Source: Candidatus Asbonarchaeum danakilense (GTDB lineage: Archaea > Nanohalarchaeota > Nanosalinia > Nanosalinales > Nanoanaerosalinaceae). Taken from it: a stretch of 46,365 nt of DNA. The notes under the pieces were generated by a model. That model ran no database searches. It was not told where the DNA came from and was given only the letters and a program-made list of their open reading frames with translations. Position 1 is the first letter of the stretch. Each line of letters opens with the position of its first letter. The stretch lies in the NCBI GenBank assembly GCA_034190465.1, contig JAXINV010000013.1, positions 1 to 46,365 of the forward strand. The letters are read 5' to 3'. Position numbers and translations under genes: made by a program. This document shows, one piece after another, positions 24,491 to 25,370 of this stretch.

Positions 24491-24700
24491 CTACTGGTGT
24501 GCTTCCTGCCCGTGCTTTTTGAGCTGCTGCTTCGAGTCGAAGCATTTCTGGCAGGCAGGACACATCCACATCCGGTTCAGGATCTCGCCCTGTCGGTCGC
24601 AGTCCTCCGTCCGGCAGACCGGCTTGTCGTCCTCGGCCTCGTCCACCGGCAGGAACTTCCGGCAGGACGGACAGATGAAGACCTCCTGTGGTTCAGGCAT
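24491..24700 (-). CDS. Small Zn-finger protein (CxxC, C-x4-C and C2H2)
   Basis: MPEPQEVFICPSC...CRTEDC...CPACQKCFDSKQQLKKHGQEAH; follows the tRNA on the same strand. Confidence 0.75.
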   Translation of the reverse strand: MPEPQEVFICPSCRKFLPVDEAEDDKPVCRTEDCDRQGEILNRMWMCPACQKCFDSKQQLKKHGQEAHQ

Positions 24701-24743
24701 GGCAGAAGGTGCGCCCCGGCGGGATAAAAAAGGTGGGAGAAGA

Positions 24744-25042
24744 TGGGGAGGGAGGGGTTCGAACCCTCGACCTCTGCGTATCTCACCAGCAGGCTCGACC
24801 TGCCGTGGATGGTGGTTGGTTTGTTGGCGTACCGCACGCGTCGCAGCGCACAGCGCCTGACTCAGATCATCGCACAACCCCACTCGCAGTTGGACCACAG
24901 ACAGACCCGAAGGGTCTGCGCCCGTCGAAGGCGGGCCGCGTTGCCAACTGCCGCGGCAGTTGCGCTCAGAGCTCACAACCGAACCAGCTCAGGGCTGTAA
25001 AGGTTATGAGCGCAGCGCTCTATCCACCTGAGCTACCTCCCC
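24744..25042 (-). tRNA. tRNA(CAU), elongator Met or Ile2, with a 225-nt intron at 37/38 (exon 1 25005-25042, intron 24780-25004, exon 2 24744-24779)
   Basis: GGGGAGG/CCTCCCC+A acceptor, GCTC/GAGC D stem, CTGCG/CGCAG anticodon stem with CT-CAT-A|A loop, GAGGG-TTCGAAC-CCCTC T arm. BHB has central helix CUCA/UGAG and bulges UA|A and AU|A. G1-C72 argues against initiator. Confidence 0.92.
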
Positions 25043-25160
25043 ACACGCACAGTGGCGTGGGCGATGGACCGGTTCCAGGGAACCGGTCGGACAGGACCCC
25101 ACCGTTGTACCGCCGGAATCCAGGCATGCAAGGGCCGGCCACATTTTTAAGTCGGTCGGG

Positions 25161-25370
25161 TCAGCCCTCATCGCTGAACGGCATCCGCTGCATCGTCGGC
25201 TCACAGTCCAGCCGGACATCCCCCAGCTCCTCATCGCAGCGGGCGCACCGTTCCGGCGGGTCCTCGCCACCGGTGAAGTACAGCGCGTTGCACGACGGAC
25301 AGAGCCCGCAATCGAAGATCGCCATGTCCCTGACGTGGTGCTTGTGGCCCTCGTTCGTCCCCGTCTCCAT
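25161..25370 (-). CDS. Small CxxC Zn-ribbon protein
   Basis: CPSC...CARC; TAATAAAA-like promoter about 22 nt upstream on the minus strand. Confidence 0.55.
   Translation of the reverse strand: METGTNEGHKHHVRDMAIFDCGLCPSCNALYFTGGEDPPERCARCDEELGDVRLDCEPTMQRMPFSDEG

Follow-up and report, generated by a model that had tools for sequence, protein, structure and literature searches.

The window, the whole 46,365-nt stretch of Candidatus Asbonarchaeum danakilense DNA analyzed in this study, belongs to a genome of 1.2 Mb with a GC content of 61%. On its minus strand (24744-25042), ARAGORN with introns allowed predicts a tRNA gene with the anticodon CAU and exons of 38 and 36 nt, which after joining are recognized by the same program as a normal 74-nt tRNA-Met(CAU); the gene was missed by ARAGORN without introns and by Rfam. 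The bulge-helix-bulge (BHB) at the splice sites is canonical, its 4-bp central helix joining 25010-25007 to 24785-24782, with two bulges of 3 nt and outer pairs formed by 25003-25002 with 24787-24786. An earlier note, made from the sequence alone, had described a 225-nt tRNA(CAU) intron with such a BHB at 37/38, and both the sequence and ARAGORN bear this out. The genome encodes the splicing endonuclease EndA (PF01974, E = 1.2e-25) and the ligase RtcB (PF01139, E = 1.9e-170); given known archaeal splicing with these enzymes, a circular form of the excised intron, also proposed in that note, is plausible.

The initiator tRNA-Met is encoded by a separate, intronless gene, isoleucine AUA codons are served by tRNA-Ile(UAU), and no match to TiaS was found in this genome, which is 92% complete. 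Thus the CAU gene encodes the elongator tRNA-Met, and a tRNA-Ile2(CAU) identity was rejected on the last two grounds. The tRNA-Ile(UAU) gene itself (G000:C11:6754-6936, L168; G000 denotes this genome) contains a 109-nt intron, and with no TiaS match AUA would be read outside the usual archaeal CAU/agmatidine route. A group I intron was rejected, since the last base of the intron is a U inside the BHB, where a terminal G is expected, and there is no Rfam group I hit. SRP RNA, RNase P RNA, and an H/ACA guide were dropped by eye, having no Rfam support and motifs that do not fit. The Rfam scan, a check suggested in the earlier note, gave no hit at the gathering score and six weak unrelated hits at E-values up to 10.

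Table 1. Features of the tRNA-Met gene in the window and other intron-containing tRNA genes of the same genome
Feature	Position	Strand	Basis and remarks
5' exon, elongator tRNA-Met(CAU), 38 nt	25005..25042	-	ARAGORN; G31 = 25011, wobble C34 = 25008, A37 = 25005
BHB intron, 225 nt, at 37/38	24780..25004	-	Sequence and ARAGORN
Antisense guide, 10 nt	24971..24980	-	Complementary to G31-A37 and the first three intron bases; 9 Watson-Crick pairs and 1 G.U
Box D (CUGA)	24966..24969	-	Sequence; last three bases invariant in alignment A1
C-stem of the kink-turn with variable extension, 94 nt	24872..24965	-	Pair probability about 1.0; 17-172 nt long in 27 order-level Met introns
Dispersed element, 88 nt, with imperfect terminal inverted repeats and two inner hairpins	24875..24962	-	Inside the C-stem
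Box C	24865..24871	-	Set with box D in kink-turn register; little or no variation at the first six bases in family alignments
Family-specific T-loop-like hairpin, UGNGA loop and one extruded base	24834..24851	-	Covariation, RNAalifold
Family-specific A/C-rich motif	24819..24827	-	8 of 9 positions invariant in alignment A2
3' hairpin listed in the earlier note	24788..24804	-	Folding; sequence unconserved in alignment A1
3' exon of tRNA-Met, 36 nt	24744..24779	-	ARAGORN
tRNA-Lys(UUU) intron gene	G000:C12:23777-24057 (L164)		Self-aimed module
tRNA-Glu(UUC) intron gene	G000:C31:6425-6635 (L165)		Self-aimed module
tRNA-Ser(CGA) intron gene	G000:C10:16265-16453 (L171)		Self-aimed module
tRNA-Thr(CGU) gene, 265-nt intron	G000:C9:35722-36062 (L166)		Box motifs, not self-aimed

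A kink-turn consists of a stem, a three-base bulge, and G.A, A.G, and U.U pairs, and box C/D guides specify the target base opposite the fifth guide base before box D. In the intron, an antisense stretch to the anticodon loop is followed by box D, a stem, and box C (Table 1). The fifth guide base before box D (24974) lies opposite C34, and the guide is invariant in all nine family-level introns (alignment A1). The boxes are laid out as a kink-turn, with a stem, a 3-nt bulge, tandem G.A/A.G pairs, and U.U; the fourth pair is C.C, and box C deviates at its last two bases, UC instead of GA. A second box pair or a second guide was not found by the intron module test or in alignment A1, nor was a guide for base 39. 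Thus the intron resembles a C/D sRNA in that the guide directly precedes box D with a D+5 target and the boxes, next to a flanking stem, form tandem G.A pairs in kink-turn register, and it would work like one; being a single module with no C'/D' pair or second guide, it falls outside the standard bipartite type. Fibrillarin, Nop5, and L7Ae are all encoded in the genome, with matches above the cut-off, the first two adjacent on contig C1. We consider it probable that the intron is a single-kink (half-size) box C/D guide for a predicted Cm34 in its own elongator tRNA-Met. The single box pair, the UC end of box C, the C.C pair, and the missing Rfam match count against it.

A search of 40 relatives gave matches in 39 of them and, with the present one, 30 order-level tRNA-Met loci. 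The guide pattern, that is, an antisense stretch to the anticodon loop with UGA two bases on, is present in 29 of the 30 introns. The exception (L015, G023:C1:1162-1251) is an intron of 16 nt in which the guide is absent; a search for a free-standing guide in that genome, 72% complete, gave no pattern match. The box C word occurs further on in 27 of 28 parsed introns, at box-to-box lengths of 14-172 nt. Guide and boxes keep their arrangement, against a tenfold variation in the length of the stem that separates the boxes.

A scan of GTDB genomes with the guide and box D pattern yielded at least 119 loci. Among the matches listed, 80 carry a title, and these belong to Micrarchaeota, Aenigmatarchaeota, Woesearchaeota, Nanoarchaeota, Nanohaloarchaea, Hadarchaeota, MAGs labelled Marsarchaeota or Methanosarcinales, unclassified archaea, or Nanoarchaeum equitans. 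After four duplicates had been dropped, the listed matches formed a wide set of 115 distinct loci, which are pattern matches and not all confirmed tRNA genes. The scan pattern did not tie base 31 to its guide partner; in the 115 listed loci the two form A-U in 83 cases, G-C in 30, G.U in two, and A.C or a mismatch in none. Box C and the C-stem lay outside the pattern. A box C with a C-stem of at least 3 bp was found in 78 of the 115 listed loci, as against a mean of 4.5 and a maximum of 10 in 200 shuffles; in 21 of the 115, by the same kind of test, box C with at least two stem pairs is absent.

In the 98 listed loci with a spacer of at least 6 nt, the two guide positions next in line match bases 1 and 2 of the intron that contains them by pairing more often than after permutation (61 vs 43.8 and 38 vs 20.0 loci, reached in 0 of 2,000 permutations each), with the reservation that kin are not independent. 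For the third intron base the covariation in the same 98 loci is not significant (1,506 of 2,000), nor is covariation with the first bases of the intron in the order-level set of 28 loci (121, 1,017, and 576 of 2,000). The relatedness of the genomes means that the wide-set numbers overstate the case; the tracking of the first two intron bases points to the unspliced precursor as a target.

Similar modules were found in other tRNA introns of this genome. After false tRNA calls had been dropped by hand, 19 genes contain introns, of 31-265 nt, and five of these introns contain the module, by a test that missed some weak-stem tRNA-Lys introns with guide and boxes visible by eye (L031, L032). In the Met, Lys(UUU), Glu(UUC), and Ser(CGA) introns the guide matches the anticodon loop of the host, with runs of 10, 11, 8, and 6 nt, respectively, and D+5 falls on base 34. 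In the tRNA-Trp introns of two relatives the guide likewise follows the host, with D+5 on base 34. The fifth module of this genome, in the Thr(CGU) intron, is aimed elsewhere. This genome has no assembled rRNA, and comparisons were made with two relatives, G001 and G005: the segment preceding a box-D-like word is complementary to their 23S rRNA over 11 nt, with 10 Watson-Crick pairs (positions 2617 and 2614, respectively), D+5 falling on a U that we take to be the equivalent of U2552 in the A-loop. The Thr(UGU) introns L042 (G006) and L279 (G003:C17) contain the box module and the repeat described below with a guide that mismatches the host anticodon; its best rRNA fit is 9 nt in 16S.

Some guides fit other tRNAs as well. 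The Met guide forms an 11-nt run with the initiator tRNA-Met of this genome and a 10-nt run with its own host, with nine Watson-Crick pairs in both cases. For the Lys guide, spliced tRNA-Arg(UCU) is a better match than the host tRNA, with 11 of 11 Watson-Crick pairs in this genome and in G001 and nine in a row in G007 and G008, and tRNA-Arg(UCU) is a possible trans target. These fits make trans targets a live possibility. The Lys guide has a G opposite U35 in all six family-level introns listed, and it is this G that yields the close match to tRNA-Arg(UCU). A G opposite U35 is also found in the Glu guide of five relatives, and this guide might also read another tRNA with U34.

The region downstream of box C contains a domain of its own. 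A hairpin and a near-invariant A/C motif are present in all nine family-level introns (alignment A2). In the hairpin, 98% of 53 cells are paired, four of the six pairs contain two-sided changes, and the covariation score was reached in none of 500 shuffles; RNAalifold recovers the same helix. Its UGNGA loop fits the T-loop consensus. Among the 41 genomes, a covariance model of the hairpin matched only the nine training loci, and a metagenome scan for family members gave five loci (four near-identical and of another family type, one truncated) with no new 3' domains. The A/C motif was considered as a second guide, and no complement common to the 16S and 23S rRNAs of G001 and G005 was found in a comparison of eight introns, L002 being represented by a wrong segment. 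By eye, the 5' end of the guide could serve as a weak pairing partner of the motif, although its bases vary and those of the motif do not. It is possibly a guide-masking strand or a protein-binding linker. In another family, the apical loop of the insert in the tRNA-Met introns L020, L022, L023, L025, L026, and L027 is complementary over 7-11 nt to the segment following box C, with the two words swapped in L022; the predicted pairing is likely a pseudoknot, a 3' add-on different from the T-loop domain.

The earlier note saw in the intron an unusually long and highly structured RNA with nested helices, and took it for a functional ncRNA hosted by the tRNA. The helices GCGCAAC/GUUGUGC and GCAGUUGG/CCAACUGC and the 3' hairpin are indeed recovered, with pair probabilities of 0.86-1.0 in both linear and circular folding. 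The outer helix ACAGC-CCUGA/UCAGG-C-GCUGU is complementary, yet receives a probability of 0.0 from a program that does not model kink-turns, and the two hairpins described as UUCG-capped fold with loops of 7 and 3 nt, neither of them a clean cUUCGg tetraloop. Strong structure is confined to the 94-nt stem that lies between box D and box C (z = -3.98, a stability reached by 0 of 200 shuffles): for the whole intron z is -1.46 (15 of 200 shuffles equally stable), for its 3' 85 nt -0.86, and for the intron without the 88-nt element +0.61, that is, no better than shuffles. The length is exceptional against published archaeal tRNA introns of 11-129 nt, as given in the accessible text of PMC3218864 and PMC4090602, but ordinary for the lineage, where the 30 order-level Met introns span 16-292 nt; the tRNA-Lys and tRNA-Thr introns of this genome are 205 and 265 nt long. 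A functional RNA is supported after all, though by the conserved box C/D-type core that the note did not see; the nested helices that it cited belong mostly to a variable insert, a dispersed repeat element, two of them being the ends of this element.

The 88-nt element shares 75% identity over 89 nt with the insert of the tRNA-Lys intron in G006 (E = 1e-10) and 65% over 93 nt with the insert of its tRNA-Thr intron, both in the opposite orientation. Identity to the tRNA-Glu intron of this genome is 72% over 81 nt for the insert and 73% over 105 nt for the module. In a genome of the same genus, the Glu insert is 28 nt long, and the Met insert is a different one of 65 nt. The left end of the element occurs 33 times in 17 of 41 genomes, compared with no occurrence of the reversed-pattern control. 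Among 30 of these loci that were fetched, 19 lie within an ARAGORN tRNA call (two of them overlapping the same region), five within 115 nt of one, and six are without a call. Copies are thus dispersed, in both orientations, within several tRNA introns and outside introns. The occurrence in either orientation supports mobility, and the element is likely mobile, as judged from its copies. No target-site duplication was seen by eye at seven kink-turn insertions, the flanks being inverted and not direct. The length of the intron is incidental to the guide, most of the length and folding coming from the element in the kink-turn stem. Being short, non-coding, and dispersed in both orientations, with terminal inverted repeats, the element resembles MITE-like elements and the transposed tRNA introns of Thermoproteales. 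The latter, as described in the available text of PMC4090602 (citing Fujishima 2010), are likewise common to unrelated tRNA genes, but there the mobile unit is the whole intron, whereas the 88-nt unit is a part of one.

We propose the following scheme for the single-kink guide. The pre-tRNA would first fold with the guide on the anticodon loop; since bases 32-35 are required for this pairing and for the splice-site helix alike, the two cannot form together. L7Ae would bind the kink-turn, whose stem the self-pairing ends of the 88-nt element would keep intact, and recruit Nop5-fibrillarin. C34 would then be methylated on the precursor, either in cis or by another precursor or excised intron. 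Refolding to the BHB would allow EndA to cut and RtcB to join the exons and probably to circularize the intron. The guide-paired fold is calculated to lie 8.1 kcal/mol below the BHB fold, and was lower in all 28 introns tested, by energies that ignore protein and kink-turn contributions.

The alternatives concern either the insert or the mode of action of the antisense stretch. In the version of the earlier note, function and conservation reside in the long nested helices, as the structure of a novel circular ncRNA; the insert does fold far better than shuffles, and related inserts in several introns keep the pairing, as seen by eye. Nevertheless, this version is extremely improbable and already largely refuted by the short orthologs: four family members have just 19-23 nt at the insert position, the closest relative carries its own, different insert, and the element is found in either orientation and also outside introns. 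It is equally hard to credit that the guide is functional in relatives and disabled here. An 88-nt insertion could hinder RNP assembly, but every guide and box position matches the family consensus, the C-stem is intact, and two relatives tolerate inserts of 143 and 166 nt at the same place.

A reading in which L7Ae is bound by the kink-turn but no methyl group is placed, the antisense stretch acting as a switch in folding or splicing, deserves more attention, although we regard it as unlikely. It would suit the single and imperfect box pair and the mutual exclusion of the guide and BHB helices, with the guide form predicted to be the more stable one throughout. A switch, on the other hand, would have no need of a fixed register, yet base 34 is the D+5 target in Met, Lys, Glu, Ser, and Trp hosts alike, the Thr(CGU) module points at 23S rRNA in the same register, and fibrillarin and Nop5 are present. 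Less likely still is a mainly trans-acting role of the excised intron in this family, with C34 of the initiator tRNA-Met among the selected targets and the host precursor not the only or chief one. The 5'-most G of the guide is invariant in all nine family introns and forms a Watson-Crick pair with initiator base 40, as read in this genome, while it pairs with its own intron in only five of the nine and never with the mature elongator; the perfect match of the Lys guide to spliced tRNA-Arg(UCU) in this genome and G001 suggests that trans targets exist. But the initiator arm was read in this genome only, the invariant GG of the guide could instead pair with the CC of the 3' motif, the position fits the initiator in just 26 of the 98 listed loci beyond this family, and the wide-set covariation favors the precursor. 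The half-size guide for C34 of its own precursor is preferred to all of these.

A broader and decidedly speculative extension of this guide model is that nanohaloarchaeal tRNA introns form a network of one-kink guides, which would methylate the wobble bases of their own precursors and, as excised circles, other tRNAs and rRNA, and conserved G.U positions would broaden what a guide can read (Arg-UCU for the Lys guide, the initiator for the Met guide). The T-loop-like domain gained by the Met guide in this family would dock on or mask the target as a control, and a tRNA-seeking mobile repeat would inflate the neutral stem. As a whole, this picture is more doubtful than the guide itself.

Several known systems are similar to the Met intron. 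The closest is the 66-nt elongator tRNA-Met intron of N. equitans. The accessible text of Randau 2012 (PMC3491384) reports its RNA as stable and abundant, notes a box D and a variant of box C, and calls it a potential C/D sRNA; the same text names no target. The host tRNA and the position are the same, the N. equitans gene (L091, AE017199) matches the guide and box D pattern, and the order of guide, box D, short stem, box C, and 3' hairpin is shared. The intron studied here differs in its length, the 88-nt repeat in the stem, and the T-loop-like 3' domain confined to one family. The euryarchaeal pre-tRNA-Trp guide (103 nt in Haloferax volcanii; sR50 in Pyrococcus) also lies inside a 37/38 BHB intron, is aimed at its own base 34, and has a pairing that extends to intron bases, according to the available portions of PMC2584109, PMC7994747, PMC11408192, and PMC4090602. 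There, C/D and C'/D' motifs carry two guides (Cm34, Um39), as opposed to one motif and one guide in the Met intron, and in vitro work favored action in trans (PMC2584109, PMC11408192, in the text available). In the accessible text of the reviews (PMC4090602, PMC11408192, PMC7994747), tRNA-Trp is the only tRNA named as intron-guided.

The same predicted modification of the same tRNA is assigned to free-standing guides. In Haloferax and in human cells, box C/D RNPs are responsible for Cm34 of elongator tRNA-Met, the guides being sR-tMet in Haloferax, sR49 in Pyrococcus, and SNORD97/SCARNA97 in human (PMC2584109, PMC4033218, PMC6601510, all in their accessible parts). The target of sR-tMet is, in the text available, the intron-containing precursor; PMC2584109, in its accessible part, has the tRNA-Met guide as 'always exonic', whereas it is intronic here. 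Archaeal sRNAs standardly have two box pairs (PMC3608112, accessible text), and half-mer C/D RNPs have been crystallized, one with target (PMC6239191, likewise); we found no published demonstration of activity for natural one-kink guides. In the openly searchable literature, outside which most subscription papers lie, and in a 2026 Asgard intron preprint searched by terms, no self-aimed one-kink guides across DPANN tRNAs and no such repeat or T-loop domain were found. The design itself was already glimpsed in N. equitans; the gain here is its dissection into a conserved core, a repeat, and one further conserved domain. New are the family-specific covarying T-loop-like hairpin with its invariant A/C motif, and guides whose fit to another tRNA (initiator Met, Arg-UCU) equals that to the host.

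Textbook accounts know one intron-encoded tRNA guide, that of tRNA-Trp, and two box motifs per archaeal guide. The module described here would be a natural guide with one kink, conserved in many archaeal lineages and, within one genome, directed at several anticodons. Such a guide would allow one to test directly if half-size C/D RNPs are active in cells and if methylation precedes splicing. A guide role would also explain why these tRNA introns are kept, and the insert their growth in length.

Finally, some observations concern the surroundings of tRNA genes. A sigma-70 promoter scan, which is unsuited to archaea, found nothing; in the region 25060-25150 of the window (minus strand), a TATA-like word is seen by eye, roughly 100 nt upstream of the tRNA. 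A palindromic hairpin between this word and the tRNA resembles, again by eye, one in the tRNA-Val(CAC) intron of this genome, and may be a further hairpin unit inserted in the leader. Small cysteine-rich ORFs lie to either side of the tRNA on the same strand (minus), at 24491-24703 (70 aa), with weak zinc-finger hits below the Pfam cut-off, and at 25161-25370 (69 aa), with no such hits. At L031 (G001:C2:12903-13075) and L083, partial duplicated tRNA ends are found just past the tRNA genes, beside hairpin units.
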